Below, in pieces: positions 34,953-52,379 of a stretch of DNA of 64,000 bases (its first letter is position 1; each line of letters begins with the position of its first letter). The notes under the pieces are model-generated. The model was not told the origin of the DNA, ran no database searches, and saw only the letters and a program-made list of their open reading frames with translations. Location of the stretch: positions 10,706-74,705 of the forward strand of contig JBGSPL010000001.1 in assembly GCA_041738615.1 (NCBI GenBank). The letters are read 5' to 3'. Position numbers and translations under genes: made by a program. Origin of the DNA: Patescibacteria group bacterium (lineage in GTDB: Bacteria; Patescibacteriota; CPR2; UBA1875; CAIMLA01).

Positions 34953-35000
34953 GGAATGCAGGAACCCCTTCCTGTCATTCCGACCGGAGTGGAGGAATCT
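34953..35000. repeat. composite hairpin repeat of the GTCATTCC...GGAATC family (member R5)
   Basis: GGAATGCAGGAA-CCCC-TTCCTGTCATTCC-GACCGGAGTGGA-GGAATC, immediately after the trxA stop. Confidence 0.6.
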
Positions 35001-35061
35001 CGGTAAAAGAGATCTTTCGACTACGCTCGAGATGACATAAGGGGTTTTGTGAAGGAGAAAG

Positions 35062-36348
35062 ATGAACGTAACACGAGAAAATCTAAAAGACGGTAAAGTA
35101 AAACTAACCATCGAGGTTGAGGCAGGGAAGATTGTTCTGGCGTCCGACCAGGTGTATGCAAAGCTAGCACCTACAGTAAAAGTAGCGGGTTTCCGTCCTG
35201 GTAAAGCCCCAAAGAACATCGTCGAGAAAGAAATTGGTACAGAGCGATTTGAAGCTGAAATTTTGGATATCCTCCTTCCTCAGACTTATTACGAAGCAGT
35301 GATGCAGGAGAAGCTAGAGGTTGTTGGCGCTCCCGAGGTAAAACTTGTGAAGTTTGTACCTACAGACGGCCTTACCTATGAGGCAGTGGTTGAGATTATG
35401 CCAGAAATCGTGATTCCAGAACTCAAGAAAGTTTCTGTCAAAAAGCAAAAAGTAGAAGTGAAAAAAGAGGAAGTTCAGGAAGTTCTTGCCGACCTTGCAA
35501 AGCAGCTTCAGAAATTTCAAGTGGTCGAGCGCGTTGCCAAGAAGGGCGACCGCGTAGAAATCGACTTTGATGGCTACCTCAAAGGGCTACCTTTTGACGG
35601 TGGTAAGAGCCAGAATCATCCTCTAGTACTAGGTTCAGGTTCTTTTATCTATGGATTTGAGGAGCAGCTCGAGGGGGTTAAGGCCAATGACGAAAAAGAT
35701 GTCGAGGTCACATTCCCCAAGGATTATCACGCCGAAAATCTAAAGGGTGAGAAAGTCACCTTTAAGGTCAAGGTTCATACAGTAGAAGAAATTATCCTTC
35801 CAGAAATCAATGATGCTTTTGCCAAGGAGGTTGGAACATTCAAGGACCTGGATACCTTAAAGGCAGATATCGAGAAGCAACTTCTCTTTACTAAAGAAAC
35901 TCAGGAGAGGCATCGTCTCGAGGACGAAATCCTGACTGCAATTGCCGAAAAGGCGAAGTTTGCAGTACCTCAGGGGCTAGTTACTCAGGAACAGCATCGT
36001 TTGATGCACGATGCCGAAAACAACTTGGCGCAGCAGGGGATGCAGATGGCGCAGTACCTCGAAATGATCAAGAAAACTCCAGAAGAGGTCGAAGCCGAGA
36101 TGAAGCCAGAGGCAGAGAAACGGGTGAAGGTCGGAATGATTCTGACTCAAGTGGCCAAAGATGGTGGATACAAGGCTACCGAGGTAGAGATTGCAAAAGC
36201 TGTAGAGGATCGTATCAAGTCACATCCAGAAGCCCAGGCCGAGGAAGCACGTAAATACTATGAGTCTCATGACGGTCAGCACGCTCTAGAGAATGCGATT
36301 ATAGGGACGAAAGTTCTGGATTACCTATTAGAAACCTGCAGTAAATAA
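35062..36348 (+). CDS. tig: trigger factor
   Basis: Ribosome-binding N-domain, central FKBP-like PPIase domain and C-terminal arm. Confidence 0.9.
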   Translation: MNVTRENLKDGKVKLTIEVEAGKIVLASDQVYAKLAPTVKVAGFRPGKAPKNIVEKEIGTERFEAEILDILLPQTYYEAVMQEKLEVVGAPEVKLVKFVPTDGLTYEAVVEIMPEIVIPELKKVSVKKQKVEVKKEEVQEVLADLAKQLQKFQVVERVAKKGDRVEIDFDGYLKGLPFDGGKSQNHPLVLGSGSFIYGFEEQLEGVKANDEKDVEVTFPKDYHAENLKGEKVTFKVKVHTVEEIILPEINDAFAKEVGTFKDLDTLKADIEKQLLFTKETQERHRLEDEILTAIAEKAKFAVPQGLVTQEQHRLMHDAENNLAQQGMQMAQYLEMIKKTPEEVEAEMKPEAEKRVKVGMILTQVAKDGGYKATEVEIAKAVEDRIKSHPEAQAEEARKYYESHDGQHALENAIIGTKVLDYLLETCSK

Positions 36349-36363
36349 ACATAACTATCCAAA

Positions 36364-36392
36364 GAAGCCGTATATAAGTGCGGCTTCTTTTT
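36364..36392 (+). terminator. rho-independent terminator after tig
   Basis: GAAGCCG-(10 nt)-CGGCTTC followed by TTTTT. Confidence 0.75.
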
Positions 36393-36436
36393 GCTTGTGG
36401 TAAAATATTACTACTCGAATACGAAAGGGGAACACC

Positions 36437-37039
36437 ATGAACGAAAGAAACCAAATCCTGATACCGACTGTGATTCAGAAAACCTCGCTAGGGGAGAGGG
36501 CTTACGATATTTATAGCAAGCTTCTCGAGGATCGCATCATTTTTCTCGGGACGGGGATAGACGACACTGTCGCAAATATAGTAATAGCTCAGCTTCTTTA
36601 TCTTGAGAGCGTCGACACCAAGAAGGACATCACGATGTATATCAATAGCCCCGGTGGAAGCGTCAGCTCTGCTATGGCCATCCTGGATACTATGAATTTT
36701 GTTGGCCCAGATGTTTCTACCGTCTGTATCGGTATGGCAGCTAGTGCAGCAGCGGTACTTCTCTCGGCTGGTAAGAAGGGGAAGCGCTTTACCTTGCCAA
36801 ACTCCAGGGTTCTTATACACCAACCTCTTGTAGAAGGTATGGGCGGACAAGCAACTGATATAGAGATACATACCAAGGAGCTGCTTCGTATCAAGAAAGA
36901 GCTTGCAACTATTCTGTCCAATAATACCGGGCAGTCTATGACGAAGATTAATAACGATGTGGAGCGCGACTATATTCTCTCAGCTGAGGAAGCGAAGAAG
37001 TATGGCCTAGTAGACGAAATAATTAGAAAGAGGAAATAG
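36437..37039 (+). CDS. clpP: ATP-dependent Clp protease proteolytic subunit ClpP
   Basis: Catalytic Ser context [11 protein letters not shown] and His/Asp blocks. Confidence 0.95.
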
Positions 37040-37999
37040 ATGAAACTTCGAGAGATTTACGAGCTTTTTGTCGAAAAGGGTATACAGAACGACCCCCGTG
37101 AAGAGACACGGATAGAGAAGCTACTCGCAAGCGAGAAGAAGAAATACGACAAGTTGGAGAAGGACGAGGAACAGTATTATGACAAAGAACGTCTGGTAAA
37201 TCCATTTGCGGATACGCGCATTCTTACAGGTGACGAAAACACCGACGTAAAGCGCATTTTGGTTGGCGTCGATATGGAAGTAGGGGAAGTCCTGCTTGCC
37301 GACCGACTTACCGAGAAAGGGCAACAGATTGACCTAATTTTGGCACACCATCCAGAGGGTACCGCCCTGGCTGCGCTTAGCGATGTTATGAATATCCAGT
37401 CGGATGTCTTGAATCTTTATGGCGTCCCTATCAATGTGGCAGAGGGGACCATCGCAGGTAGGATCTCCGAGGTATCCCGTGGTATTGCTCCAGTGAATCA
37501 CCAACGAGCCGTGGACGCAGCTAGACTGCTCGGTTTCCCTATGATGTGCTCGCATACTGTGGCTGACAACATGGTGTACACCTTTGTTAAAGACATTATG
37601 GAAAAGAAAAAACCCGATACGGTGGGTGAGGTGTTAGATCTACTTATGGAAATACCGGAGTATCGGGAAGGCAAGAAGCTAGGCGCAGGTCCACGGCTAT
37701 TTACGGGAAACAAGGAGAATAGAGCGGGTAAGATCGCAGTTACCGAGATGACAGGCGGTACTAGTGGTGCTAAGGAAATGTTTGAGAAGATGTCACACGC
37801 CGGAATCGGAACCATCATCGGGATGCACATGGGCGAGGAACACCGCAAAGAGGCCGAGAAGAATCACCTGAACGTAGTTATCGCTGGACACATGGCCTCT
37901 GATTCTCTCGGCATGAACCTACTTCTCGACGAAATCGAGAAAAAGGGAGTGGAAATTGTCCCAGTTTCTGGGCTGCTTAGAGTAAGTCGAAATAGTTGA
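37040..37999 (+). CDS. Nif3-like dinuclear metal centre protein (GTP cyclohydrolase 1 type 2 homologue), tentative
   Basis: LILAHHPEG and VIAGHMASDSLGMN resemble the HH.. and AGHxxSE metal-binding motifs of the Nif3/YbgI/YqfO family. N-terminal coiled-coil-like extension. Confidence 0.5.
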   Translation: MKLREIYELFVEKGIQNDPREETRIEKLLASEKKKYDKLEKDEEQYYDKERLVNPFADTRILTGDENTDVKRILVGVDMEVGEVLLADRLTEKGQQIDLILAHHPEGTALAALSDVMNIQSDVLNLYGVPINVAEGTIAGRISEVSRGIAPVNHQRAVDAARLLGFPMMCSHTVADNMVYTFVKDIMEKKKPDTVGEVLDLLMEIPEYREGKKLGAGPRLFTGNKENRAGKIAVTEMTGGTSGAKEMFEKMSHAGIGTIIGMHMGEEHRKEAEKNHLNVVIAGHMASDSLGMNLLLDEIEKKGVEIVPVSGLLRVSRNS

Positions 38000-38024
38000 C
38001 ATCGCGCCCCTTTTAGTGTAAATT
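37996..38024 (+). promoter_or_regulatory. promoter for rpoBC (TTGACA-17-TAAATT)
   Basis: Perfect -35 at 37996-38001 and TAAATT at 38019-38024, followed by a ~140-nt leader containing the inverted repeat AAAAGAAAA...TTTTCTTTT. Confidence 0.5.
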
Positions 38025-38166
38025 TTGTAGTACAGCTTAACGGAATAAAAGAAAAACGGGAGTCGAAAATACCGATTCCTTGCTCTTTTCTTTTATGGGC
38101 ACTACAACGAGAATAACGAATTACCCTTATATATAAGTAAAATCATTAATTAAGGAGCGAGCTTTT

Positions 38167-41100
38167 ATGGCCAAAAAATCGCTAGAATTCGCGTCATCGT
38201 CAAAGACGGGTCGCAAATATCTCAACCCATCCCCGGACGTTCTGCAGCTACCAAACTTGACAGAAGTCCAAACAGACAGCTTCAACTGGTTCATTCGAGA
38301 GGGACTAGCAGAGCTGTTCGAAGAGGTTTCACCTCTAGACGACTACACCGGCAAGCTAATGTCCATCTCTTTCAAGGACTACTGGCTTGGCGACCCCAAG
38401 TACTCAGAGCTAGTCTCTAAGGAGAAGAAAGTTACCTACGAAGCACCTCTAAAGGCAAACGTAGAGCTTACGATCAAAGAGACCGGCAAAAAGAAAATCC
38501 AAGAAGTTTTTCTTGGTGATATGCCCGTGATGACAGGTCGCGGTACTTTTATTATTAATGGTGTAGAGCGCGTTGTCGTTTCACAGCTAGTACGTTCCCC
38601 AGGAGTTTACTTCACCTCAGAAGAGCTCACAGCGGGAACTTTTTTTGGCGCCAAGGTTATTCCTGGACGCGGTGCATGGCTCGAAATCGAGACAGCGCCT
38701 CAGGATGGCATCTACGCCAAGATCGATCGCAAGCGTAAGATTCCTATTACCACATTACTTCGTGCTTTCGGTTACTCTACTGACGAGGAAATTAAAGCTC
38801 TGTTCCATGATGTAAACACCAACAAAGAGCGTGACTACATCGCAAACACTCTCGAAAAGGATCCTTCACGCAATCAGGGTGAGGCATTCGTAGAAGTTTA
38901 CAAACGTATTCGTCCAGGGGATTTGGCCACCGTGGAGAATGCTCGCAGCTTTATCGAAGGTATGTTCTTCGACGTGAAGAAATATGACCTCTCTCGTGTT
39001 GGTCGTTACAAGACCAACAAACGTCTTGGCGTTGACATCAAGAATGTTCGTGCCAACCGTGCCTTCCGCAAGGAAGACTTAGTCGCTATCGTTAAGGAAA
39101 TTATTCGTTTGAACAATGAAGGTGGCGTCGCTGACGACATCGACCATATGGGTAACCGTCGTGTTCGTACTGTTGGAGAACTTATCCAGCAGAAGTTCCG
39201 CATCGGTCTGACTCGTACCGAACGTAACATAAAAGATCGTATGTCTATCTATGACACCGAGACAGTTACGGCGTCTCAACTTATCAATGTGCGTCCAATC
39301 GTCGCATCGGTTCGCGAGTTCTTTGCTAGTTCACAGCTTTCACAGTTTATGGACCAAACAAATCCTCTTACAGAGCTCGCTCACAAGCGTCGTCTGTCCT
39401 CTCTGGGGCCAGGCGGACTCTCACGTGAACGTGCTGGTTTTGAGGTTCGTGACGTTCACAAGACTCACTACGGTCGCATCTGTCCTATTGAGACTCCAGA
39501 AGGACCGAACATTGGTCTTGTAAACTCACTCGCATCATTTGCAAAGATCAACAGCTATGGCTTCATCGAGACTCCATATCGAGTGGTTGAGAAGGACAAA
39601 AATGGCAAGCCTTGCGCTACTGGCAAGATTGTTTACCTTGCTGCCGATGATGAGGAAAACAGCATTATCGCTCAGGCTACTACACTAGTAGATGAAAAAG
39701 GTCATTTTGTTAGCGCTACTGCTATTGCTCGTCGACACGGGGAAGCGGACGAAGTCCCTGTCGCCGAAGTTGACTATATCGACGTCGCTACAGAGCAACC
39801 AGTAAGCATCTCGACCTCATTGATTCCTTTTGTAGAACACGATGATGCACGTCGCGCGCTGATGGGTGCCAACATGCAACGTCAGGCTGTTTCGGTTGTG
39901 AAGCCACAGGCTCCAATCGTTGGTACTGGTAACGAAGCTAAGGTAGCGGAAGACTCTGGACAGATTGTTCAGGCAAAAGCTGCAGGTGAAATCGTTGCTG
40001 TATCTGCGGACACAATCAAGATTAAATATACAGACGGCAAGGAAGAAATTATCCTTCTGAACAAGTTTGCCCAGACCAATTCCGATACTTGTATCAATCA
40101 ACATCCACGCGTTGCGACAGGCCAGAAAGTAAAGAAGGGTGACCTTCTTGCTGACGGCGCTGCTACCGAAGGTGGTGAGCTAGCACTGGGACAGAATGTG
40201 CTGGTTGGTTACATGACTTGGCAGGGTAACAACTTCGAGGATGCTATCGTCCTTTCACAGAGACTAGTGGAAGATGATCGTTATACATCTATCCATCTAG
40301 AAGAGTTCCACATCGACGTGCGCGACACTAAGCTCGGGCCAGAGGTTATCACTCGTGATATCCCAAATGTTGGTGATGAGGCACTTCGCGACCTAGACGA
40401 AGAGGGTATTATCCGTGAAGGCGCCGAAGTCGTTGCTGGTGACATTCTAGTTGGAAAGATTACACCAAAGGGAGAGACCGAGCTTACAGCAGAGGAGCGC
40501 CTATTGCGTGCTATCTTCGGTGAGAAGGCTCGTGACGTAAAAGATAGCTCACTTCGTGTTCCACCTGGAGTACACGGCAAGATCATAAGCATTGGCACCA
40601 AGTCTCGCGACAAGGGTGACGAGCTTCCAGCCGGTGTTATCACTCAGGTTTATGTCATGATTGCTCAGATGCGCAAGATTGCGGTCGGAGACAAGATGGC
40701 AGGACGTCATGGTAACAAGGGCGTTATCGCGCGTATTCTTCCTATCGAAGATATGCCATACCTAGAGGACGGCACTCCACTAGATGTGCTTCTAAATCCA
40801 CAAGGTATTTCATCTCGTTTGAACTTTGGCCAGGTGCTCGAAACTCATCTTGGTTGGGCTGCAGCTGCGCTTGGTATCACCATCGCGTCTCCAGTATTCA
40901 ACGGAGTAAAAGTAGATCAGATCAAGCAGCTTCTAGGCGAGGCCGGACTAGCAGAGGACGGTCGTTCACAGCTTTACGACGGACGTACTGGCGAACCATT
41001 TGCAGAACGTACTGTTGTTGGTTACAAATACTTCTTGAAGCTTCTTCACCTAGTCGAAGACAAGATTCACGCTCGTTCTATCGGGCCGTACGCTATGGTT

Positions 41101-41562
41101 ACTCAGCAGCCACTTGGTGGTAAAGCTCAGTTTGGTGGCCAGAGATTCGGTGAGATGGAAGTATGGGCACTTGAGGCATATGGTGCCGCTCATACCCTAC
41201 AAGAAATTCTGACTATCAAATCCGACGATGTTATCGGCCGTTCCAAGGCTTACGAGTCTACGATCAAGGGTGAGGACATCAAGGAGCCACGAGTTCCAGA
41301 GTCCTTCAACGTTCTTGTAAAAGAGCTTCAGGGCTTGGGTCTAGAAGTAGACCTCATCCAAGAGGACAAGACAGGCGACGTTGCCATAGAAGCAGAGAAG
41401 CTTATCGAAGAGAGCTACGAAGAGAATATCAGGGAGCTCAAAGGACAGCCCCTAATGGTAGGGGACCGTGCCGAGGACGAGTTACCTGCAGTTGATGTCG
41501 ATGCCGACAAAGCGATAGACGACTTTGAAGTACTAGAAGAAATGCCTCAGGGCGAGAAATAG
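38167..41562 (+). CDS. rpoB: DNA-directed RNA polymerase subunit beta
   Basis: Conserved beta-subunit blocks along the full length ([20 protein letters not shown] and others). Confidence 0.97.
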
Positions 41563-41576
41563 GCGAGGAGAGAAAA

Positions 41577-44500
41577 GTGATATTACAAGAAACAAGAAAC
41601 GAGAACTTCAAGGCGATTAAGCTTTCGATAGCTTCTCCAAAACACATTCTCGATTGGTCACACGGCGAAATTACGAAGCCTGAGACTATTAACTACCGCA
41701 CACTAAAGCCAGAAAAGGACGGCCTTTTCTGCGAAAAGATTTTCGGCCCTGCAAAGGACTGGGAATGTTACTGTGGTAAGTACAAAAGAATCCGCTACAA
41801 AGGCGTAATCTGCGATCGTTGTGGAGTCGAGGTTACTCGCTCTATCGTTCGACGTGAGCGCATGGGCCACATCAAGCTTGCAGTGCCAGTAACCCATATC
41901 TGGTTCCTCCGTGGTGTACCTTCATCAATCGGTCTTACTCTCAATCTCTCAGCCCGCGACCTCGAGAAGGTGGCTTACTTTGCAAATTACATTATTCTCA
42001 CAGTGGATGATGATGCAAAACAGGCAGCGAAAAAGAAGATCGACGAAGAGTTCAAGGCTCGTAAGGCCGAGATCGAAGCAACCGAAAAGGATGCCGAAGC
42101 TCGTCAGCAGCAGATTGATGATCTAGAACAGTTCCGTACTACAGCACGCGATGATCTAAACCAGATTAGTCCGCTCGAGATTATCTCCGAATCTAAATAT
42201 CGTGATTTCTCACTGAAATTTGGCGAAGTATTTACTGCAAGTATCGGTGCCGAAGCTATCAAGACTCTACTGGAGAAGGTTGATTTAGATAAACTTGTAG
42301 AAACACTACGTATAGAAGTCGATGCCTCACAGGGTGTAAAACGCAAGAAAGCGATCAAGCGCCTCAAGCTTATCGAGGGATTTGTAAGCGCCGGGATTAG
42401 GCCTGAGTGGATGATTATGACTGTAATGCCAGTAATTCCACCAGATCTTCGCCCTATGGTTCAGCTCGACGGTGGTCGTTTTGCGACATCTGACCTAAAC
42501 GACCTTTATCGTCGTGTTATCAACAGAAATACTCGTCTCAAGAAACTACTCGACATGGATGCCCCTGAGGTTATCTGCCGCAACGAGAAGCGCATGCTTC
42601 AAGAGGCAGTAGATGCCCTTATCGACAACTCTGCACGTCGCGACAAGAACGTTTCTATGGCTACAAACCGCAAGAAACTACGTTCACTCGCAGACATGCT
42701 CAAGGGTAAACAGGGTCATTTCCGCCAGAACCTACTAGGGAAACGTGTGGACTACTCTGGCCGTTCGGTTATCGTAGTTGGTCCTCATCTAAAGCTAGAC
42801 CAGTGTGGTCTACCAAAGATGATGGCCCTCGAGCTCTTCAAGCCATTTGTTATCAGTAAGCTTATCCTTGACGGGATTGCACACAATGTAAAGAGTGCAA
42901 GTCGTATGATAGAGCGTAGTCGCACCGAAGTTTGGGATGCCCTAGACTCAGTGATTACTGGCAAGTACGTGCTCCTAAATCGTGCTCCTACCTTGCACCG
43001 TCTCGGTATTCAGGCTTTCAAGCCAGTACTGATCGAAGGTAAGGCTATCCAGATTCATCCGCTAGTTTGTTCGGCTTTCAACGCCGACTTCGACGGAGAC
43101 CAAATGGCGGTTCACGTTCCTTTGTCTGCAAAAGCACAAAAGGAAGCCGCTGAAATCATGCTTTCTACGAAGAACCTACTGAAGCCAGCCGCTGGTGAGC
43201 CAGTCGTAAAGCCTTCTCAGGATATCGTACTCGGTATCTACTGGATGACAGTAGATGTAGCTGAGGACCGTGCAGTAAAGGCCTACTCTTCAAAAGAAGA
43301 GGTTATCTCGGCATTTGACCTTGGCGAGCTAAGGGTTCGCAGCAAGGTGAAGCTAATGATCGACGGCGTTCTCACTGAGACAACTGTCGGCCGTATCTTC
43401 TTCAACGAAATTCTCCCAGTAGGTTTTGGCTTCATGAATGAAGAAATGACCTCCAAGAAACTAACAGCCGTTATCGAGCGTATCTTCGTAGATTACGGTT
43501 CAGACGAGACTGTAAAGTTCGTAGACAAGATGAAGGACCTCGGATTTGAGTTTTCGACGCTGTCTGGTATCTCTATGTCGATGGACGATTTCCAAATTCC
43601 AGAGTCCAAGGGCGCAATTCTTGCTAAGTTTGAAGAGAAGGAAAAGCAAGTCTTTGCTCAGTACAGTCAAGGTATGATTACTGGCGATGAGCGCTATGCC
43701 AAGATTCTAGAAATCTGGATGGAAGCTCGTGACGAAGTCATGAAAGCCATGGCTAAAGACATGGATCAGGCCAGCTCTGCTGCCGTCATGATGAATTCTG
43801 GTGCTCGTGGTAACCTCTCTCAGATGGCTCAGATGGCCGGCATGAAGGGTCTCGTGGTGAACGCTTCCGGTCGTACAATCGAGTTCCCAATCAAGTCCAA
43901 CTACAAGGAAGGTCTTTCTTCTCTAGAATACTTCTCATCAACACATGGCGCACGTAAAGGTCTTTCCGATACGGCCCTTAAGACTTCTGACTCTGGATAC
44001 CTCACTCGTCGTCTGGTAGACGTTTCTCAGGAAGTCGTTGTTACCGAGAAGGACTGTGGTACTAAGAATGGTACTGTAATCACCAAGACAGAATCTAAGA
44101 AAATTGGTGAAGATTTCTCCGCTCGCGTTATCAGCCGCGTACTTGCAAAAGAAGCCGTGGATGAGAAAACTGGTGAGATTATCCTGAAGAAGGGGACTCT
44201 TATCGGTACCGACGAGTTCGCCAAGCTAGATAACGCTCAGATTACAGAAGTTACTATCCGTTCTGCGCTCACTTGTGAGTCAGAGTGGGGCATCTGCCAA
44301 CACTGCTACGGTTCCGACCTGGCACGTGGTGGTCTTATCGCTCTCGGTGAAGCGGTCGGCATTATCGCTGCGCAATCTATCGGCGAGCCTGGAACTCAGC
44401 TAACGATGAGAACGTTCCATGCAGGTGGTATCGCTGGCGTTGATATTACCCAGGGTCTACCTCGTGTAGAGGAGCTTTTCGAGGCTCGTCAGCCAAAGGG

Positions 44501-45323
44501 ACAGGCAATCCTTGCCGAGATCTCTGGCAAGATTGTGATCACAAACGCCAATGGTAAACACAAGATTGACATCGTCTCAGACGTACTTTCAGAGGATGTT
44601 TATGACATGACTGGTCTGACACCAGAGGTCAAGAACAATCAAACTGTTGCCATCAAGGACGTTCTTGCTACCAAGGACGGTAAGAAGCCTGTAAAGGCCA
44701 AGAACGCTGGTATCGTCAAAATCAAAGATGGCGCACTACGCGTAGTCCGCGACGCTGAGATCAAGAGCTACGAAGTCCCTCAGCAAGTTGGCGTTTACGT
44801 CAAGGATGGCGACTCTGTAGAGGTTGGTCACCAGATTACCGAAGGTTCTTGGAATCTACAAGACGCTCTGAAGCTGATGGGTGAAAACGCTGTCGAGCGC
44901 TACATCATGACCGAAGTTCAGCAGACCTATGCTTCACAAGGTCAGACGATCAACGACAAGCACATCGAAATTATCATCCGTCAGATGTTCTCACGTTGCC
45001 GCATCGACGAGGCAAACGACACTAGCTTCATTGCTGGCGAAATCGTTTCTCGTTCTGCTATGCAGCGTACGAACAACAAGACAAAGAAAGAGAAGAAGAA
45101 GATCGCCGAGTTTACTAACCTTCTGCTCTCAATCACCAAAGTATCCATTACTACCGATAGCTTCCTCTCCGCTGCTTCCTTCCAGGAAACTAGCAGGGTA
45201 CTTATTAGCGCCGCTGTAGCCGGCAAGGTCGACGAACTCAAGGGTCTTAAAGAGAATGTGATTATTGGTAAGCTGATTCCAGCCGGAACGGGCTTTGCTC
45301 AATCATTGCAAAAGAACAAATAA
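41577..45323 (+). CDS. rpoC: DNA-directed RNA polymerase subunit beta'
   Basis: Zinc-binding CxxC..CxxC, catalytic NADFDGDQM, trigger loop and jaw regions. Confidence 0.97.
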   Translation: MILQETRNENFKAIKLSIASPKHILDWSHGEITKPETINYRTLKPEKDGLFCEKIFGPAKDWECYCGKYKRIRYKGVICDRCGVEVTRSIVRRERMGHIKLAVPVTHIWFLRGVPSSIGLTLNLSARDLEKVAYFANYIILTVDDDAKQAAKKKIDEEFKARKAEIEATEKDAEARQQQIDDLEQFRTTARDDLNQISPLEIISESKYRDFSLKFGEVFTASIGAEAIKTLLEKVDLDKLVETLRIEVDASQGVKRKKAIKRLKLIEGFVSAGIRPEWMIMTVMPVIPPDLRPMVQLDGGRFATSDLNDLYRRVINRNTRLKKLLDMDAPEVICRNEKRMLQEAVDALIDNSARRDKNVSMATNRKKLRSLADMLKGKQGHFRQNLLGKRVDYSGRSVIVVGPHLKLDQCGLPKMMALELFKPFVISKLILDGIAHNVKSASRMIERSRTEVWDALDSVITGKYVLLNRAPTLHRLGIQAFKPVLIEGKAIQIHPLVCSAFNADFDGDQMAVHVPLSAKAQKEAAEIMLSTKNLLKPAAGEPVVKPSQDIVLGIYWMTVDVAEDRAVKAYSSKEEVISAFDLGELRVRSKVKLMIDGVLTETTVGRIFFNEILPVGFGFMNEEMTSKKLTAVIERIFVDYGSDETVKFVDKMKDLGFEFSTLSGISMSMDDFQIPESKGAILAKFEEKEKQVFAQYSQGMITGDERYAKILEIWMEARDEVMKAMAKDMDQASSAAVMMNSGARGNLSQMAQMAGMKGLVVNASGRTIEFPIKSNYKEGLSSLEYFSSTHGARKGLSDTALKTSDSGYLTRRLVDVSQEVVVTEKDCGTKNGTVITKTESKKIGEDFSARVISRVLAKEAVDEKTGEIILKKGTLIGTDEFAKLDNAQITEVTIRSALTCESEWGICQHCYGSDLARGGLIALGEAVGIIAAQSIGEPGTQLTMRTFHAGGIAGVDITQGLPRVEELFEARQPKGQAILAEISGKIVITNANGKHKIDIVSDVLSEDVYDMTGLTPEVKNNQTVAIKDVLATKDGKKPVKAKNAGIVKIKDGALRVVRDAEIKSYEVPQQVGVYVKDGDSVEVGHQITEGSWNLQDALKLMGENAVERYIMTEVQQTYASQGQTINDKHIEIIIRQMFSRCRIDEANDTSFIAGEIVSRSAMQRTNNKTKKEKKKIAEFTNLLLSITKVSITTDSFLSAASFQETSRVLISAAVAGKVDELKGLKENVIIGKLIPAGTGFAQSLQKNK

Positions 45324-45364
45324 TCTGTTAAAATCTATAAGATTTTCAAAGGAAAAGGGAAAAT

Positions 45365-45772
<408 letters not shown>

Positions 45773-45877
45773 TTAAACTATAAATAAATGCAGTGCTATT
45801 AGCTGCTCCGCCACGTAGAGAGCAGCTAAAGTATTCATCGAGAGCAGGGCAAATCCTGACTCTTACGAAGGAGAAGT

Positions 45878-46354
45878 ATGCCAAGAGATCCTAGAAAAGT
45901 AGAAAAAAGAATCCTGTTACCAGACGCAAAGTATGGTAGCGTTATCGTGTCTAAATTCATCAATAAGGTAATGCTCGACGGCAAGAAAAGCCTAGCCCAG
46001 AATCTAGTGTATGGCGCTATGGAAGAAGCCGAGAAGAAAGTTGGTAAGCCAGCTCTAGAAATCTTCGAGACTGCAGTCAAGAATGTTTCGCCAGTGGTTC
46101 AAGTAAAGTCTCGCCGTATTGGGGGCGCAACTTATCAGGTGCCTATGGAAGTGAAGGGTGATCGTCGTATGCACTACGGCTTTAGCTGGATTCGTGACGC
46201 TGCCCGCAACCGAAAGGGGATGGACTTCTCAAAGGCACTCGCCCTTGAACTTGTTGATGCCTACAACAGCATCGGTATCGCCATGAAGAAAAAGGAAGAT
46301 ACTCACCGTATGGCAGAAGCCAACAAGGCCTTTGCTCACTTTGCACGTTACTAA
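45878..46354 (+). CDS. rpsG: 30S ribosomal protein S7
   Basis: Conserved S7 sequence, in str operon order. Confidence 0.95.
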   Translation: MPRDPRKVEKRILLPDAKYGSVIVSKFINKVMLDGKKSLAQNLVYGAMEEAEKKVGKPALEIFETAVKNVSPVVQVKSRRIGGATYQVPMEVKGDRRMHYGFSWIRDAARNRKGMDFSKALALELVDAYNSIGIAMKKKEDTHRMAEANKAFAHFARY

Positions 46355-46360
46355 GTAACC

Positions 46361-46396
46361 TATTTGTCATTCCCGTGGAAGCGGGAATCTATAAAA
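46361..46396. repeat. hairpin repeat R1 (tGTCATTCCcg-TGGAAG-cgGGAATCtataaaa)
   Basis: ATTCCCG/CGGGAAT stem starting 7 nt after the rpsG stop. Confidence 0.6.
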
Positions 46397-46420
46397 CAAA
46401 CTAAATGAAATTGGAGGCGT

Positions 46421-48511
46421 ATGCCTAGAGAATATTCACTCGAAAACACAAGAAACATCGGAATTGCCGCTCATATCGATGCTGGTAAAACCACTGTAAC
46501 CGAGCGTATCCTATACTATACTGGTCGTACTCATAAGATCGGTGAAGTGCACGAGGGTGCAGCTACTATGGACTGGATGGAGCAGGAGCAGGAGCGTGGT
46601 ATTACTATCACATCCGCAGCGACTACTTGTTTTTGGGCTGGTCATCGTATCAACATTATTGACACACCAGGTCACGTAGACTTTACCGTAGAGGTAGAGC
46701 GTTCTTTGCGCGTATTAGACGGTGCGGTCGTAGTATTTGACGGTAAAAATGGTGTAGAGCCTCAGTCCGAGACTGTATGGCGCCAGGCCGATAAATATCA
46801 TGTTCCACGTATCGCTTTTGTAAACAAACTTGACGCTATCGGCGGCGATTTCTATATGTCGCTGGAATCTATCAAGGAACGTCTCGGTGCCAATGCAGTT
46901 GCTATGCAGCTGCCTATCGGTATGGAGTCTGGCTTCTCTGGTGTTGTAGACCTCATGGAGATGCGTTCGATCAACTACGGTAACGAGGATATGGGCAAAG
47001 AGCAGCATATCGCCGAGATTCCTGCTGACATGCTCGACAAGGCCAATGAATATCGCGCTATTATGGTAGAGAAAATTGCCGAAACCGACGACGCTCTTCT
47101 CGAGAAGTTCTTCGACGGCAAGGAAATCACTGTACCAGAACTCAAGGCTGCGCTTCGCAAGGCTACTATCGCCAACGAAATCGTGGGTGTTTTTGCCGGT
47201 ACTGCGCTTAAAAACAAGGGTGTTCAGCCAATGCTTGACGCCGTTATCGATTATTTGCCAAACCCGCTCGAGGTTCCTGCCGCTCATGGTGAGGACCCAA
47301 AGACTGGCGAGGAAGTAGCAGTAGAGAGTACCGATGATGGTCCTTTCTGTGGTCTTGTTTTCAAGATTGCTGCCGACCCATTCGTCGGTAAGCTTGCTTT
47401 CTTGCGTGTTTATCGTGGTCGCCTTGCTTCTGGAAGTTACGTTCTAAACGTAGCCACTGGGGAGAAAGAGCGTATCGGACGTATCGTTCGCATGCACGCC
47501 AACACCCGCGAAGAAGTGAGTGAAGTTTTCTCAGGCGAGATCGCTGCTGCAGTAGGTCTCAAGAATACTCTTACCGGTAACACTATTTGTGATCCTACCC
47601 ACCCAGTATTGCTCGAGAATATTACTTTCCCAGAGCCTGTGATTCAGGTTGCCATCGAGCCAAAGACCAAGGCCGACCAAGAGAAGATGGGCATCGCCCT
47701 CTCTCGTCTCGCCGAGGAAGATCCTACTTTCCGCGTCCATACCGATGAAGAAACAGGCCAGACTATCATAGCTGGTATGGGTGAGCTTCACCTCGACATT
47801 CTTGTCGACCGTATGAAACGCGAGTTCAAGGTAGAAGCAAACGTAGGTAAACCTCAGGTTGCTTACCGTGAGTCTATCAAGGGCAAGGTTAAACAGGAAG
47901 GTAAGTTCGTACGTCAATCTGGTGGACGTGGTCAATATGGTCATGTTTGGATCGAGATTGAGCCTAACGAAGAAGGTCTAGGATTCGAGTTCATCAATAA
48001 GATTGTTGGTGGCGCGATTCCAAAGGAATACATCAATCCAGTACAGAACGGTATCCGTGAAGCACTAGACAACGGTGTTATTGCTGGTTATCCAGTAGTA
48101 GACGTCAAGGTTACTCTCTATGACGGTTCATTCCACGAGGTAGACTCGAACGAAATGGCCTTCAAGATTGCTGGTTCCATGGCGCTTCAGGAGGGTGTCC
48201 GCAAGGCGACTCCTATTATTCTAGAACCAATTATGAAGGTAGAAGTTACCGTACCGGAAGAGTATATGGGTGATATTATGGGAGACCTCAACTCGAAGCG
48301 TGGACGCATTCAGCAGATGTCGGACCGCGGCAATGCCAAGATCGTAGACGCTTTCGTCCCACTAGCTGAGATGTTTGGCTACGCTACAAACTTGCGTTCT
48401 ATGACTCAGGGTCGTGGCACTAGTACAATGGAATTTGACCACTACGAAGAAGTTCCAGGAAACGTGGCTGCTGAGATTATCGCGAAGCGTGGTAAGAAAC
48501 AGGCAGAATAA
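46421..48511 (+). CDS. fusA: elongation factor G
   Basis: G-domain motifs [18 protein letters not shown], and domains II-V. Confidence 0.97.
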
Positions 48512-48518
48512 CCCCCAT

Positions 48519-48555
48519 CACGTCATTCCGGACCTGATCCGGAATCTATACAAAA
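48519..48555. repeat. hairpin repeat R2 (cGTCATTCCgg-ACCTGAT-ccGGAATCtatacaaaa)
   Basis: ATTCCGG/CCGGAAT stem starting 8 nt after the fusA stop. Same flanks as R1. Confidence 0.6.
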
Positions 48556-48580
48556 AGACCTCAGAAATGAGGTCTTTTTG
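48556..48580 (+). terminator. rho-independent terminator after fusA
   Basis: AGACCTCA-GAAA-TGAGGTCT followed by TTTT. Confidence 0.8.
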
Positions 48581-48590
48581 ATATCTAGTA

Positions 48591-48625
48591 TATTTGTCGT
48601 TCCTGGTCGTAAGCCAGGGATCCTC
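48591..48625. repeat. hairpin repeat R3 (tatttGTCgTTCCtgg-TCGTAAG-ccagGGAtCC)
   Basis: About 30 of 34 positions match R4 at 52078..52108. Confidence 0.55.
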
Positions 48626-48659
48626 CCCTTGGCTTGCCTTGCTAAAGCAAGGCATTCAC

Positions 48660-48689
48660 GATACTTTTGTCCATAGTCACAAAAGTATC
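48660..48689. repeat. perfect 11-bp-stem hairpin GATACTTTTGT-(8 nt)-ACAAAAGTATC
   Basis: Perfect inverted repeat. Sister element at 52214..52241. Confidence 0.6.
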
Positions 48690-48878
48690 CAAAAAGACAT
48701 TATAAATGCGGCGGTCTGAGGACCTTCGCAGCGGACAGTCATGCCTGAGCGGCTTGGGTTTAGTCAAATTGCGATCTCTCACAAATCTATAGGATTGGCC
48801 GTTGTAGTACACGCATTTTATTAATCTCACGTCCTAGGCCCTCCAGACACGTTACAGGGCAAGTTAACGTCAAAATCA

Positions 48879-48907
48879 TTGATTATTGCTCTATTTTGGC
48901 ATATAAT
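48879..48907 (+). promoter_or_regulatory. near-consensus promoter (TTGATT-17-TATAAT) at the head of GC-rich cassette 2
   Basis: TTGATT at 48879-48884 and TATAAT at 48902-48907. Confidence 0.6.
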
Positions 48908-48960
48908 CGCGGTCAGTAGTTTACAGAGCATGGGTTGACTTGCCCAGAGAGGGGAATCGT

Positions 48961-49131
48961 ATGCCGCAAGAAACTGCTGCTCCGGCTTGGATCGGATGGG
49001 TGCTCCTTCTAATCCCCACCGCCATGATCTTCATTGGACCCATGGCGTACAAGAGGCGCGATGACGTAAGAGCTTCGTGGCAAAGGCCGTCAGAGGATGA
49101 GATTAACCGATCGATTGGGTATCGCGGTTAG
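48961..49131 (+). CDS. small hydrophobic protein (56 aa, one TM helix), cassette 2
   Basis: GAGAGGGG SD 7 nt before the ATG at 48961. Sequence WIGWVLLLIPTAMIFIGPMAY followed by a basic tail. Confidence 0.4.
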   Translation: MPQETAAPAWIGWVLLLIPTAMIFIGPMAYKRRDDVRASWQRPSEDEINRSIGYRG

Positions 49132-49196
49132 CCCCGTCTGATAGGTAGTCAAAGGCGAGCGCGCCCCCCGGTGCGCACCTGACGAGAAGAGGGGAC

Positions 49197-49328
49197 ATGA
49201 AGAGGATACTGAGTGATTTGTGGTGGACCTTGGTGGTCTACCTGGTCTGCTCCATTGTCTGGGCCGTTTGTGGCCTGGCTTCGGTCGGGATCGTTCCTGA
49301 CCAGATTGGCGCCGACGAAGGCGCCTAG
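49197..49328 (+). CDS. small hydrophobic peptide (43 aa, one TM helix), cassette 2; not in the ORF track
   Basis: ATG at 49197 after AAGAGGGG. MKRILSDLWWTLVVYLVCSIVWAVCGLASVGIVPDQIGADEGA. Confidence 0.35.
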   Translation: MKRILSDLWWTLVVYLVCSIVWAVCGLASVGIVPDQIGADEGA

Positions 49329-49347
49329 CGCCAGAATGGAGTAGACC

Positions 49348-49593
49348 GTGAGTAAGGTCATAGTCTCCCTGCCGGGAGGTAAGGCGATATTCACAGAGGA
49401 GCTTCCTCGGGAAGCAACGACGGTTTCCGTCGAGTATGCCCAGAGGCTCGTGGATCAGCTCGGGAAGACCGACGGGAGGAACTACCAGCTGTGCACTAAG
49501 CCTCAAGTCGCGAGCGACGAGGACGAGGAGCGCAATCTGCTTCCTGGAGATGTTCTCATCAGCATCGCCGATTTTGGTCCTCGTACAAACTGA
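49348..49593 (+). CDS. hypothetical protein (81 aa, GTG start), cassette 2
   Basis: GGAG SD 6 nt before the GTG. No family recognised. Confidence 0.4.
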   Translation: MSKVIVSLPGGKAIFTEELPREATTVSVEYAQRLVDQLGKTDGRNYQLCTKPQVASDEDEERNLLPGDVLISIADFGPRTN

Positions 49594-49658
49594 GGCCGTC
49601 CACGGCACATCCAAACGCATGTTGGGATGTCGCCGGTGGCGGCCTCTCAACATATATA

Positions 49659-49687
49659 TTGTCAAGAATGCTTATCCATAGTAAGAT
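49659..49687 (+). promoter_or_regulatory. candidate internal promoter (TTGTCA-17-TAAGAT)
   Basis: AT-rich 60-nt spacer inside the GC-rich cassette. Moderate match to consensus. Confidence 0.35.
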
Positions 49688-49753
49688 ATCGCCATCGACG
49701 TTAGTGTCACTTGTGTGCGCCTAGCGGCGTGCACCTACCAAGGGGGGGCGGGG

Positions 49754-50233
49754 ATGATGAAACGCTGGTTACTCGACGGCTTGCAAGTGCTTGTGTTGTC
49801 AGCCGTACTGACAGCGGCTTGTTACGCGCCGGTTTTTGCCGGCATCTGGCTCTACGGGGTCATCGGGGGCTTGAACCTGTTCGTACTGTTCCTGGCTGTG
49901 GCTGTTGTGGCCATTCGCATCGCACTCTCACCACATGGTTTCGTTGAGCGTTCAGCGGACCTGTGGCTTGCAGCTGTGGGCATGTCGCTCGCGGCGCTTG
50001 AGATGTGGAAGCCGCTTCTCACTACAGTCGTCTGCTGCGAGTACTTCATGTTCATGGCAGTGCTCGGCTACGGTGCTCCAGTCTGGTTGCTCGGACTTCC
50101 GGTCGCGATTTGGCCGGTACTGCCACTGCTGGTTTTGGCCAGCACGTTGCTTCTCGGGATGTTCATCATGCTGGAGGCAGAGGGCGACGAATTCTCCGAC
50201 ACCAGCGAGCTGGCGCGGTCGTTCGGCCACTAG
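49754..50233 (+). CDS. hypothetical polytopic membrane protein (about 159 aa, 4-5 TM helices), cassette 2
   Basis: AGGGGGGG SD before the ATGATG at 49754. Strongly hydrophobic with an acidic C-terminus. Confidence 0.5.
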   Translation: MMKRWLLDGLQVLVLSAVLTAACYAPVFAGIWLYGVIGGLNLFVLFLAVAVVAIRIALSPHGFVERSADLWLAAVGMSLAALEMWKPLLTTVVCCEYFMFMAVLGYGAPVWLLGLPVAIWPVLPLLVLASTLLLGMFIMLEAEGDEFSDTSELARSFGH

Positions 50234-50304
50234 GGACACCAGTGTCTCAGGTTCCGGAGGTCCTGCAACGTAGGTTGTGGGGCCTCCGGAAGAGAGAAAA
50301 ATAC

Positions 50305-50333
50305 TTGCACAAAGTAGTGATATATAGTAATAT
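50305..50333 (+). promoter_or_regulatory. promoter for tuf (TTGCAC-17-TAATAT)
   Basis: TTGCAC at 50305-50310 and TAATAT at 50328-50333, with a 110-nt AT-rich leader. Confidence 0.45.
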
Positions 50334-50444
50334 TTGTAAGCCAAATGAATACATATCCACCACGTCACGAAGGACGGGGGGATTTAAAGTGTATTACAAG
50401 AATATTAAACAAAATTAACAAAGTAAAACTTACAAGGAGACCAA

Positions 50445-51620
50445 ATGGCTGAAGTTTATAAGAGAGACAAGCCCCATGTAAACGTTGGTACTATCGGACA
50501 CGTTGACCATGGTAAGACAACCCTGACCGCTGCAATTACATCGGTACTTGCAAAGAAAGGCCTAGCTACCGCTAGAAAGTTTGCCGACATCGACAACGCT
50601 CCAGAAGAGCGAGAACGTGGTATTACTATTGCTACTTCTCACCAAGAGTACGAGACAGAGAAGCGTCATTATGCGCACGTTGACTGTCCTGGACATGCCG
50701 ACTACGTAAAGAACATGATCACTGGTGCTGCACAGATGGACGGCGCTATCTTGGTTGTGGCAGCTACTGACGGTCCTATGCCTCAGACTCGTGAGCACAT
50801 CCTACTTGCTTACCAAGTTGGTGTTCCACAGATTGTAGTTTACATGAACAAATGTGACATGGTTGATGATGCAGAGATGCTTGACCTCGTCGAGATGGAA
50901 ATTCGTGAGCTTCTTACTAAGTACAAATATGATGGTGACAACACACCTATCATTCGTGGTTCAGCCCTCAAGGCGCTTGAAGGCGATGCTAAGTACGAAG
51001 AGTCAATCATGGAGCTTATGAACGCTCTTGATACATACATCCCAGAGCCTACTCGTGATACCGACAAACCTTTCATGATGGCTGTAGAGGACGTTTTCTC
51101 TATCAAGGGTCGTGGTACAGTTGCTACTGGTCGTATCGACCGTGGTGTTGTTAAGATCAACGACGAAGTAGAAATCATTGGTATTAAGCCTACTCGCAAG
51201 ACTGTTGTTACTGGTATCGAGATGTTCAAGAAACAGCTCGAGCAGGGACAAGCTGGTGACAATGCTGGTTTGCTACTACGCGGTATTGAAAAGAACGACA
51301 TTGAGCGTGGTATGGTTCTAGCAAAGTCTGGTTCTATCACACCTCATACAGAGTTTGACGCTGAAGTATACGTTCTTACCAAAGAAGAAGGCGGACGACA
51401 TACTCCTTTCTTCAAGGGTTACAAACCTCAGTTCTACATCCGTACAACTGACGTAACTGGTGAGATCGAATTCGAAGGCGAAATGGTTATGCCTGGCGAT
51501 AACGTCAAGATGGCCGTTAAGCTTATCCAGCCAATCGCTATCGAAGAGGGTCTTCGCTTCGCAATCCGCGAAGGTGGCCGTACAGTTGGCGCTGGTGTAG
51601 TTACCAAGATCAAGAAATAG
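50445..51620 (+). CDS. tuf: elongation factor Tu
   Basis: [18 protein letters not shown] motifs and domains II/III. Confidence 0.97.
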
Positions 51621-51629
51621 ATTCACACA

Positions 51630-51651
51630 GATCCCCGCGCAAGCGGGGATC
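51630..51651. repeat. GC-rich hairpin R6 (GATCCCCGC-GCAA-GCGGGGATC) after tuf
   Basis: 9-bp perfect stem followed by TTATAATAAC and no U-run. Flanks resemble R1/R2. Confidence 0.5.
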
Positions 51652-51713
51652 TTATAATAACTAAAACTTATAGATAGCAGGGCACTTTGACCCTGGGAAC
51701 TAGAAGGAGACAC

Positions 51714-52034
51714 ATGGCTGAGAAAAACGAAAAACAGAGGATCCGAATCAAACTAAAGGCGTACGACAACAAGATTATCGACCAGTCGACAACACAGATA
51801 ATCGAGACAGCAGTGCGCAGTGGTGCTAAGGTGGCGGGACCTATCCCACTACCAACAGATAGGACTCCTATCACTGTAAACCGCGCGAGCAACGTCAACA
51901 AGAACGCACGAGAACAGTTTGAGATGCGGGTGCACAAGCGCCTCATAGATATCACTGACTTCACAGCGAAGACAGTGGACAGTCTGATGAGTCTCTCACT
52001 TCCAGCCGGAGTAGACATCGAAATCAAAATGTAA
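51714..52034 (+). CDS. rpsJ: 30S ribosomal protein S10
   Basis: GAAGGAGA SD before the ATG at 51714. S10 signature [11 protein letters not shown]. The ORF-track start at 51687 lacks an SD. Confidence 0.95.
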
Positions 52035-52043
52035 TAGTAAAAA

Positions 52044-52064
52044 AGCCCCTTCGGGGGCTTTTTT
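52044..52064 (+). terminator. rho-independent terminator immediately after rpsJ
   Basis: AGCCCC-TTCG-GGGGCT followed by TTTTT. Confidence 0.8.
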
Positions 52065-52077
52065 GATTACCGGTATA

Positions 52078-52108
52078 TTGTCATTCCTGGTAGTAAGTCA
52101 GGGACCCA
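52078..52108. repeat. hairpin repeat R4 (tGTCATTCCtgg-TAGTAAG-tcagGGAcCC)
   Basis: Near-identical to R3. Confidence 0.55.
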
Positions 52109-52118
52109 GCCTTTCCAA

Positions 52119-52146
52119 CGTCATTGCGAGCGAAGCGCGGCAATCT
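52119..52146. repeat. hairpin repeat R8 (cGTCATTgCgagc-GAAGC-gcgGCAATCtccc)
   Basis: Same architecture, with ATTGC/GCAAT replacing ATTCC/GGAAT. Confidence 0.45.
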
Positions 52147-52153
52147 CCCTGTC

Positions 52154-52178
52154 CGTCATTCCATCGTAGACTGGAATC
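52154..52178. repeat. hairpin repeat R7 (cGTCATTCCatc-GTAGAC-tGGAATCc)
   Basis: ATTCCA/TGGAAT stem. Confidence 0.55.
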
Positions 52179-52213
52179 CATTACTAGCGGATTAATCTTA
52201 GCGTTATTCCTTC

Positions 52214-52241
52214 GATACCTTTCTCTTGAAAGAAAGGTATC
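52214..52241. repeat. perfect 11-bp-stem hairpin GATACCTTTCT-CTTGAA-AGAAAGGTATC
   Basis: Perfect inverted repeat with the same GATAC...GTATC ends as 48660..48689. Confidence 0.6.
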
Positions 52242-52379
52242 CCAAAGTTCAAGAAAAATCGAACTCCCTCGTCTCTGTACGAAATTTTACTGAGCAAGCT
52301 CGCAATAATTTCTAGCATTCGACGATAGCCGGGCGCGCGGCACCGAGCGATTTTTCGGGGGAGTTGGAAGCGAATATTA

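Follow-up and report, generated by a model that had tools for sequence, protein, structure and literature searches.

What are the short hairpins with constant ends and variable stems that recur between the genes of a Patescibacteria genome, several of them in its ribosomal protein gene cluster? Eight of them, R1 to R8, had been picked out by an original prediction in the window studied here (the whole stretch of 64,000 nt that was analysed), where they were proposed to be mRNA-stabilising or attenuating elements of the REP (repetitive extragenic palindrome) kind, or footprints of a MITE-like mobile element. The best explanation, to which we give a probability of about 60%, is that they are repeats of the dRS3/NTS/SRM type, which are mobile or recombining and head mosaics resembling the NIMEs of Neisseria at the borders of two cargo slots, and which would act as hairpins of single-stranded DNA (ssDNA). 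The hairpin class itself, known in Neisseria as dRS3, NTS and SRM, had been described before, an identity that the original prediction missed. New here are its occurrence in a phylum that goes unmentioned in the main text of the defining paper, the NIME-like mosaic, a previously undescribed module (called hereafter module X) and the two cargo slots.

The pattern TCATTCC-N4-30-GGAAT has four matches in the window, at 34975, 46367, 48523 and 52156, all on the + strand. Shuffled sequences gave an expectation of 0.22 and none of 100 shuffles reached four, which corresponds to an enrichment of about 18-fold; this comparison with chance, originally proposed for the whole genome, applies to the 64-kb window. 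Looser copies beyond these four are R3, R4, R8 and one copy on the minus strand, and the head GTCATTSC opens two further units after rpsJ, at 52080 and 52120. Every copy lies in non-coding DNA, which makes up about 8% of the window, the coding share being about 92%. In an anchored hairpin scan of 1.39 Mb of DNA, units of the ATTCC/ATTGC type were confined to the window, its relatives and two unrelated loci, with only two occurrences in a negative control of 1.29 Mb (80 loci of mixed phyla from an elongation factor G scan, 62–69% identity, no close relative included).

The compensatory changes claimed earlier were borne out. When 16 copies, some from the window and others from related loci, were placed in a model-derived alignment, pairing held in 94.4% of cells and six of the eight stem pairs had changed on both sides, figures to be read with the caveat that the copies are paralogous repeats and that the alignment was fitted to the structure and is biased toward pairing. 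None of 500 shuffles matched the observed covariation, and slid registers did not come close either. The pairing is asymmetrical between the strands: wobble pairs all combine a 5' T with a 3' G (six cells) and the reverse was never seen, which indicates that the strand carrying GTCAT is the one that folds.

It is highly improbable that the family consists of chance palindromes in spacers of mixed AT and GC content, grouped by eye. Such a view could point to R4, R7, R8 and R5 (as first described), which are individually weak, and to a scan of a viral collection that returned 85 matches where about 100 were estimated by chance, although that estimate used an assumed collection size and is uninformative. 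It does not accommodate the excess of matches over shuffles, the restriction of all copies to non-coding DNA, the covariation, or the recurrence of near-identical motifs in relatives beside the same module X. Chance is thus excluded for the family as a whole, some individual members being weak.

The dRS3 repeat of Neisseria, ATTCCC-N8-GGGAAT, has been recast as the core of a 28-nt oriented hairpin named NTS (CGTCATTCCCGCGMAVGCGGGAATCYRG), and NTS has been generalised to "Ssn-related motifs" (SRMs) in several phyla (Chenal et al. 2025, Nat Commun, PMC11893778). NTS-like repeats are known far beyond Neisseria, in Wolbachia and Rhizorhabdus, and the SRM pattern, HGTCWYN(0-2)YYVSBRHN(0-5)WNVSBRGN(0-2)RNCYNB, was built by hand from 29 genomes of four phyla (PMC11893778). 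R1 (GTCATTCCCGTGGAAGCGGGAATCTA, 46366–46391, + strand; with its flanks TGTCATTCCCGTGGAAGCGGGAATCTAT) contains an exact dRS3 match at 46369–46388, against 0.06 expected, and is the only window copy to do so; exact dRS3 sequences are also found at position 10545 of locus L081 and position 1459 of locus L084, both from a close relative. Compared with NTS, R1 is the best window copy (24 of 28 positions, four mismatches), a copy in locus L010 has two mismatches, and the copy at L084 1455 (TGTCATTCCCGCGAAGGCGGGAATCTAG) agrees with the consensus at 27 of 28 positions and fits the published SRM pattern too. Another locus of the candidate phyla radiation (CPR), from a Falkowbacteria metagenome-assembled genome (MAG), carries GTCATTCCCGCGGAAGCGGGAATCCAG.

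As read from the sequence, the unit is oriented: a pyrimidine-rich leader, GTC, a variable palindrome starting with AT(T/C)C, then C. The oriented GTC...C flanks are present in R1, R2, R7, R8 and the minus-strand copy; R3 and R4 have GTC with a degenerate 3' end, and R6 has no GTC. The core GTC-ATTCCC-N8-GGGAAT-C, the orientation by non-palindromic flanks and the intergenic location around variable genes are all shared with dRS3/NTS/SRM. In contrast to the repeats of Neisseria, the stems of the window lineage are far more diverse (ATTCC, ATTGC, ATCC, ATCTC and ATTCT heads), the published SRM pattern misses most copies, a cognate ssn gene is only putative, and the host is a patescibacterium, from a group without mention in the main text of PMC11893778. 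The hairpins show a clear family resemblance to dRS3/NTS/SRM, and their membership follows from this resemblance and from intermediates, not from the letter of the definitions.

Individual copies differ in how well they fold. R1, 11 nt after the rpsG stop codon, has an 8-bp stem and a GGAA loop (-6.9 kcal/mol as DNA, z -3.9). R2 (GTCATTCCGGACCTGATCCGGAATC, 48522–48546, +) starts 10 nt past the stop codon of fusA, closely preceding the terminator of that gene, and also has an 8-bp stem (-7.6 kcal/mol as DNA, z -3.5). R3 (GTCGTTCCTGGTCGTAAGCCAGGGATCC, 48596–48623, +) is of the R4 sub-type and is found where cargo slot 1 has its left border. It folds well as RNA (-12.1 kcal/mol, z -3.6) and only at -4.5 kcal/mol as DNA, because T-G pairs are needed; its region is 82% identical over 49 nt to 52060–52107, which contains R4 (GTCATTCCTGGTAGTAAGTCAGGGACCC, 52080–52107, +), a copy that folds weakly (z about 0) and occupies the left border of cargo slot 2. 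R8 (GTCATTGCGAGCGAAGCGCGGCAATC, 52120–52145, +) is an ATTGC/GCAAT variant with an inner GCG-AAG-CGC stem, an architecture also seen in a copy of locus L173 (GTCATCTCGACCGAAGCGGAGAGATC), and R7 (GTCATTCCATCGTAGACTGGAATC, 52155–52178, +) has a 6-bp stem and heads a mosaic described below. A real family with constant ends was therefore correctly recognised from the start, whereas the folds of R4, R7 and R8 are weak and that of R3 requires G-U pairs.

The descriptions of R5 and R6 called for correction. In the R5 region (34953–34999, +), the weak GTCATTCC...GGAATC unit (34974–34999) pairs over 5 bp only up to GGAAT (-3.4 kcal/mol, z +0.3) and is overlapped by a strong hairpin at 34953–34981, GGAATGCAGGAA-CCCC-TTCCTG(T)CATTCC (-10.5 kcal/mol, z -7.7), of which GTCATTCC is the 3' arm; the covariance-model score of the region was 19.4 bits. 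The covariance model, a test suggested with the original prediction, also found the minus-strand copy (GTCATCTCGAGCGTAGTCGAAAGATCTC, 35009–35036; match 35005–35040, 14.1 bits) in the trxA-tig spacer. This copy, overlooked in the original prediction, resembles that of L173, and forms a tail-to-tail pair with R5. R6 (GATCCCCGCGCAAGCGGGGATC, 51630–51651, +), 9 nt after the tuf stop, is very stable (-12.5 kcal/mol as DNA, z -7.8) and is conserved, has no GTCAT head, and was matched by the model in part only (23.7 bits, positions 8–34, covering the stem and 3' flank). It probably represents a fixed hairpin distinct from the family, or else a derived member.

A terminator-like hairpin upstream of nusA (TTTGTCGGGTTCCGTAGCGGAATGCGACTTTTTT, window 20400–20440) has a TTTGTC head and a TTCCG/CGGAA core as in the repeat family; the likeness is possibly a coincidence.

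Comparison with relatives revealed insertion/deletion polymorphism at most of these sites. The close relative, GCA_964501135.1, is represented by L081 and L084 (about 27 kb examined), and its RpsJ and RpsL are identical to those of the window; L192, L195, L196 and others are more distant, with 85–88% identity in ribosomal protein L2. Between rpsG and fusA, the window has R1 in a 66-nt spacer, L081/L084 have an unrelated 111-nt spacer without R1, likewise L085, and L192 carries the variant GTCATCCTGAACTAGATTCAGGATCTC. On the 3' side of fusA, L081 keeps the terminator and its A-tract without R2, R3 is missing from its slot-1 left border, and L196 carries the variant GTTATTCTGAACTTGTTTCAGAATCTG between the fusA stop and the fusA terminator. 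After rpsJ, L081 retains R4 with changes (CCTGGTCGTAAGCCAGGAA), unrelated sequence replaces R8, and the position of R7 holds a different hairpin (GTCATTCCCTTGAAGAAGGGAATC). R6 is identical in L081 and L082 and missing in L192, L195 and L196.

Between clpP and nif3, the stop codon and the ATG abut in the window (37039 and 37040), and L084 has a 229-nt element (1444–1672) exactly between them; L177 has an element at the same site. The L084 insertion is clean, with no obvious target duplication, and is composed of a near-perfect NTS, a spacer, a second hairpin and a module of about 113 nt. Since copies are gained, lost and swapped for variants at the same spacers in close relatives, the hairpins act in this lineage as mobile or recombining intergenic DNA and not as fixed regulatory RNA.

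Related copies have also entered genes. An SRM-headed element lies in-frame in leuS of L010 (1469–1545), where it adds "VIPAEAGIQKTGSGLVKTGLKSGMT" to a Falkowbacteria LeuRS, and an in-frame inverted SRM pair (L178 6826–6900) occupies a variable linker of a 564-aa ELP3-like open reading frame (ORF), the linker of the L181 orthologue being unrelated. These two copies recall the Rickettsia palindromic elements (RPEs), which are found in-frame in protein-coding genes, measure 100–150 bp and are unrelated in sequence to the present hairpins; unlike RPEs, the window's own copies are all intergenic.

The turnover bears directly on the possibility that the hairpins work as RNA, folding in 3' untranslated regions, past highly expressed genes, where they would stabilise mRNA against 3' exonucleases, serve as processing sites or act as weak attenuators between cistrons. 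Seven of the eight window copies are sense to their flanking genes, R1, R2 and R6 begin 9–11 nt past stop codons, only U-G wobbles are tolerated on the sense strand, R3 is a good fold with RNA parameters only, and R6 is identical in the nearest relative. Yet an RNA-level role is unlikely for the family, given that presence, absence and variants alternate at the same spacers despite identical RpsJ and RpsL, that the copy at 35009–35036 is antisense and others are in-frame in coding genes, and that R4, R7 and R8 do not exceed shuffles in stability. Moreover, a complete intrinsic terminator stands behind R2 and is kept in L081 without R2, and no U-tract follows R1, R7 or R8. Such a role is most plausible for R6, because it is conserved in the nearest relative and has no GTC head. 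The ties to stop codons and to highly expressed genes, part of the first description, were over-read.

The terminators themselves are separate from the repeats. The intrinsic terminator of rpsL-rpsG-fusA (AAAAAGACCTCAGAAATGAGGTCTTTTT, 48552–48579, +) lies outside the repeat family and that of rpsJ (AAAAAGCCCCTTCGGGGGCTTTTTT) occupies 52040–52064 (+); both were read from the sequence, a simple terminator scan having listed neither. The TATA[C]AAAA tail, which had been counted as part of the repeat, belongs at R2 to the conserved fusA terminator. T-runs are missing 3' of R1, R2, R6, R7 and R8, and a function of the repeats as intrinsic terminators was rejected for want of U-tracts. Two further candidates were also discarded. 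Promoters were considered, since TTGTCA in "TTGTCATTCC" resembles a -35 box; TATAAA stands 20 nt away from it, and no promoter was called there by the scan. Integron attC sites were rejected, as no R'/R'' core and no integrase were seen. In Rfam, only tRNAs exceeded the gathering score in the window, and nothing relevant appeared at E <= 1 in 48450–54150.

The claim that the repeats sit immediately after stop codons holds for R1, R2 and R6; R3 and R4 come after the fusA and rpsJ terminators, and R7 and R8 lie farther in. The post-stop placement is most simply explained as survivorship in a 92%-coding genome; clpP-nif3 offers no other position that spares a gene.

Downstream of rpsJ the hairpins are part of a larger mosaic. 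R7 is followed by hairpin 2, GATACCTTTCT-CTTGAAAG-AGAAAGGTATC (52214–52241, +), and by module X, AAGTTCAAGAAAAATCGAAC...CGATTTTTCG (52245–52357, +), a dispersed, structured repeat of about 113 nt. Elsewhere the loop of hairpin 2, CTTGAAAG, is kept while the stem is different yet complementary (CCATTTTCT...AGAAAATGG). The window copy of module X is 86% identical to L084 1522–1654, a further copy follows rpsJ in L081, and a metagenome scan with an invariant 20-mer of the module gave six true copies (L173, L174, L177, L178, L181 and L182). The module is usually preceded by hairpin 2 and by an SRM-type hairpin (GTCATCTC..., GTCATCC... or GTCATTCC...); in L177 it has SRMs on both flanks, and in L174 it is part of an array in which five or more GTCATYC units point the same way and a spacer recurs.

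A fold of module X based on eight copies has 37 predicted pairs, ten of them changed on both sides; its closing stem (GAAAAATCG/CGATTTTTC) is invariant, and three further stems lie inside it. No Rfam family matched it, and a module X probe had no match in the viral collection. The genes 3' of the module vary (nif3, gpsA-like, NrnA-like, cassette ORFs), hence it is not the leader of one regulon.

In Neisseria, NIMEs consist of hairpin repeats alternating with repeat modules of 50–150 bp, in arrays that had not been seen outside that genus at the time (Bentley et al. 2007, PMC1797815). Here, hairpins likewise flank repeat modules, and the window and L081 have different arrays after rpsJ; module X is the counterpart of an "RS" unit of such a mosaic. 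The alternation of hairpin and module, the strain-variable arrays at syntenic sites and the cassettes between conserved genes are like those of NIMEs and minimal mobile elements. The differences are that the present arrays are short (one to five hairpins), that the structure of module X is conserved and covarying, and that the cargo slots lie inside the str/S10 ribosomal protein gene cluster.

Beside hairpin 2, we note a hairpin in the left part of cargo slot 1, GATACTTTTGT-CCATAGTC-ACAAAAGTATC (48661–48690), with the same GATAC/GTATC ends and a different interior.

Mobility may also have a transposon origin, the repeats being footprints or non-autonomous derivatives of the MITE or REP/BIME type, moved by a Y1 transposase (IS200/IS605 or RAYT) or by an IS110/Piv-type recombinase and not by an Ssn-type nuclease. 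The clean 229-nt insertion without obvious target duplication would suit this origin, as would the inverted pairs with GTCAT...ATGAC termini in the trxA-tig spacer, in L010 leuS and in L178, and there is a precedent in a phage-encoded transposase/recombinase that integrates at dRS3 in Neisseria (PMC1797815). We nevertheless regard it as quite improbable: neither the window nor the related loci examined showed a transposase or recombinase gene, most copies are single hairpins and not inverted pairs, and the motif fits NTS/SRM, not the REP consensus.

The REP and BIME elements of enterobacteria, whose functions include mRNA stabilisation and the binding of gyrase and IHF, are likewise short, imperfect, structure-constrained extragenic palindromes, often just past stop codons and sometimes in inverted pairs; unlike here, their consensus is unrelated and they come with RAYT genes, of which none was seen in the window or the related loci examined. 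Of the functions first proposed for the repeats, then, the dispersed REP- or MITE-like kind stands, and an RNA role falls away as the main reading in view of the turnover, the separate terminator and the antisense and in-frame copies.

Two blocks of about 2 kb break the otherwise conserved gene cluster, fusA-tuf at 48512–50444 and rpsJ-rplC at 52035–54090. Both gaps are bounded by an intrinsic terminator and a conserved promoter-like region, and their ORF parts have a GC content of about 0.57, with 0.60–0.75 at third codon positions versus 0.42–0.57 in core genes. Cargo slot 1 (fusA-tuf, 48580–50300, +; GC 0.575) contains four small ORFs (48961–49131, 49197–49328, 49348–49593 and 49754–50233) and promoter-like sites at 48879 and 49659. 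Cargo slot 2 (rpsJ-rplC, 52065–53940, +) consists of the repeat mosaic, a promoter-like site at 52380 and three small GC-rich ORFs (52483–52935, 53011–53334 and 53461–53883). A 58-nt direct repeat bearing a terminator with hairpin GTGGGCGGTGGGGGAAACCCCGCTGCCCAC follows the second and third of these ORFs (53336–53393 and 53886–53940). L081 has one copy of this repeat and lacks the third ORF, a pattern that suggests modular gain and loss of ORF-plus-terminator units.

The cargo is variable, slot contents differing between the genomes examined (five relatives compared). In L081, fusA-tuf encodes proteins of 82, 106, 129 and 179 aa and rpsJ-rplC proteins of 154 and 107 aa, which are two of the window's three. 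In L192/L193 the first slot holds a Yip1-like gene and the second radical-SAM, DegT and NUDIX genes with a 106-aa ORF; L195 has 100- and 130-aa ORFs in the first and the L192 set in the second; L196 has 103- and 82-aa ORFs in the first and a single 119-aa ORF in the second. The window cargo proteins had no Pfam domains and no phage homologues, found only themselves in an index of 5.8 billion proteins, and gave three remote matches by full phmmer.

SRM hairpins occur at the left border of each slot, just past the upstream terminator, and none at the right borders; the clustering at the borders of GC-rich cassettes that had been predicted is thus confined to the left side.

ORFs of both blocks share a near-identical context upstream of their start codons, CAGAGAGGGGA(A/G)TCG (48945–48963 and 52997–53013), which hints that both blocks came from the same foreign, GC-richer source.

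Around the slots, the window carries a tRNA cluster and housekeeping genes, then trxA, tig, clpP, a NIF3-like gene, rpoB, rpoC, rpsL, rpsG, fusA, tuf, rpsJ and rplC, past which the remainder of the S10/spc cluster continues as far as secY. Almost all genes are on the + strand, and the GC skew is positive over the full length, from which we infer that the + strand, which is the GTCAT strand in the window, is the lagging-strand template. The host belongs to an unclassified Patescibacteria lineage. The nearest named matches of its ribosomal protein L2 are MAGs labelled "Patescibacteria group bacterium", at no more than 76% identity. The gene of ribosomal protein L30 is missing between rpsE and rplO (window 61455–62449), an absence that is typical of the CPR and consistent with these names. 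Patescibacteria have tiny genomes and are thought to depend on DNA uptake, which makes the function of the repeats in Neisseria, modulating the integration of transforming ssDNA, relevant to this host. A ComEA-like helix-hairpin-helix DNA-receptor gene at 32878–33294, recognised from its translation only, fits a competence lifestyle.

How the repeats might act is suggested by the work on NTS. SsnA, a 94-aa single-domain GIY-YIG protein, binds and cuts the NTS forward strand only as ssDNA and thereby lowers the integration of NTS-bearing transforming DNA (PMC11893778). By analogy, the GTCAT strand would fold as ssDNA, either while transforming DNA is taken up or on the template of the lagging strand, and the hairpin would be recognised by a hairpin-specific enzyme, which could be a recombinase or a single-domain GIY-YIG ssDNA nuclease of the Ssn type. 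Copies would thereby spread and bias recombination at their own flanks. They accumulate where a 92%-coding genome tolerates them, just past stop codons and in the two terminator-to-promoter gaps, which also serve as swap slots for foreign GC-rich cassettes.

An SRM system is expected to include a small single-domain GIY-YIG gene of the Ssn subfamily (cd10448), usually flanked by the motif; a candidate enzyme gene was found near one array. An 84-aa single-domain GIY-YIG gene (PF01541, E 2e-15; L174 5975–6226, minus strand) shares the orientation of the L174 array, from which it is separated by about 130 nt on the downstream side, and belongs to a family that is widespread in CPR phyla (75–82% identity, 2582 matches). 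Members at L183 10001–10255 and L185 4001–4255 have a conserved leader, TTTACCCTGTTAAATAATTTTAAATTT, before the ATG, and that of L183 splits a Bro-N gene, beside a pair resembling the reverse transcriptase and bAvd of a diversity-generating retroelement. A search of the Protein Data Bank for a solved SsnA found none, the query being an approximate consensus.

Several observations weigh against the reading of the hairpins as SRM-type ssDNA targets. None of R1 to R8 matches the published SRM pattern, R1 failing at one position, and none matches NTS at one mismatch or fewer; the single SRM-pattern match in the window, at 28132, is inside a coding gene. For R4, R7 and R8 the folding energy does not stand out from that of shuffles (z about 0 to -1.3). 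No GIY-YIG gene is present in the 64-kb window or in the 27 kb or so of the nearest relative. In L183 and L185–L191, members of the L174-type family occur in two other contexts with no hairpins around, the best solved relative of the L174 protein is UPF0213 BH0048, and the family looks like a free-standing mobile gene for a homing-type endonuclease. Lastly, nearly all genes point the same way as the GC skew, which confounds orientation, so that an RNA-level role keeps some room. The enzyme link is weak in this lineage, to which no Ssn-type nuclease is tied.

A bolder proposal, possible but doubtful, would have this CPR lineage run a Neisseria-like system of hairpin repeats, mosaics and cargo slots within its ribosomal cluster. 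NTS-type ssDNA hairpins and module X would mark and promote the exchange of foreign cassettes at fusA-tuf and rpsJ-rplC via natural transformation, the ultra-conserved flanking genes providing the homology arms, and module X, far from being an inert spacer, would have a function of its own as a new RNA or ssDNA element.

The dRS3/NTS/SRM family, whose partner enzyme was first identified in 2025, now reaches the candidate phyla radiation. Even if the hairpins were plain selfish repeats, we infer that their annotation would be useful, since it would explain recurrent spurious ORFs of the "VIPA.AGI" type and assembly breaks. Within the most conserved gene cluster of the genome, two gaps are hypervariable slots bordered by repeats, which makes them a place to study gene acquisition by streamlined symbionts, and a landmark of practical use in strain typing or in the engineering of insertion sites.

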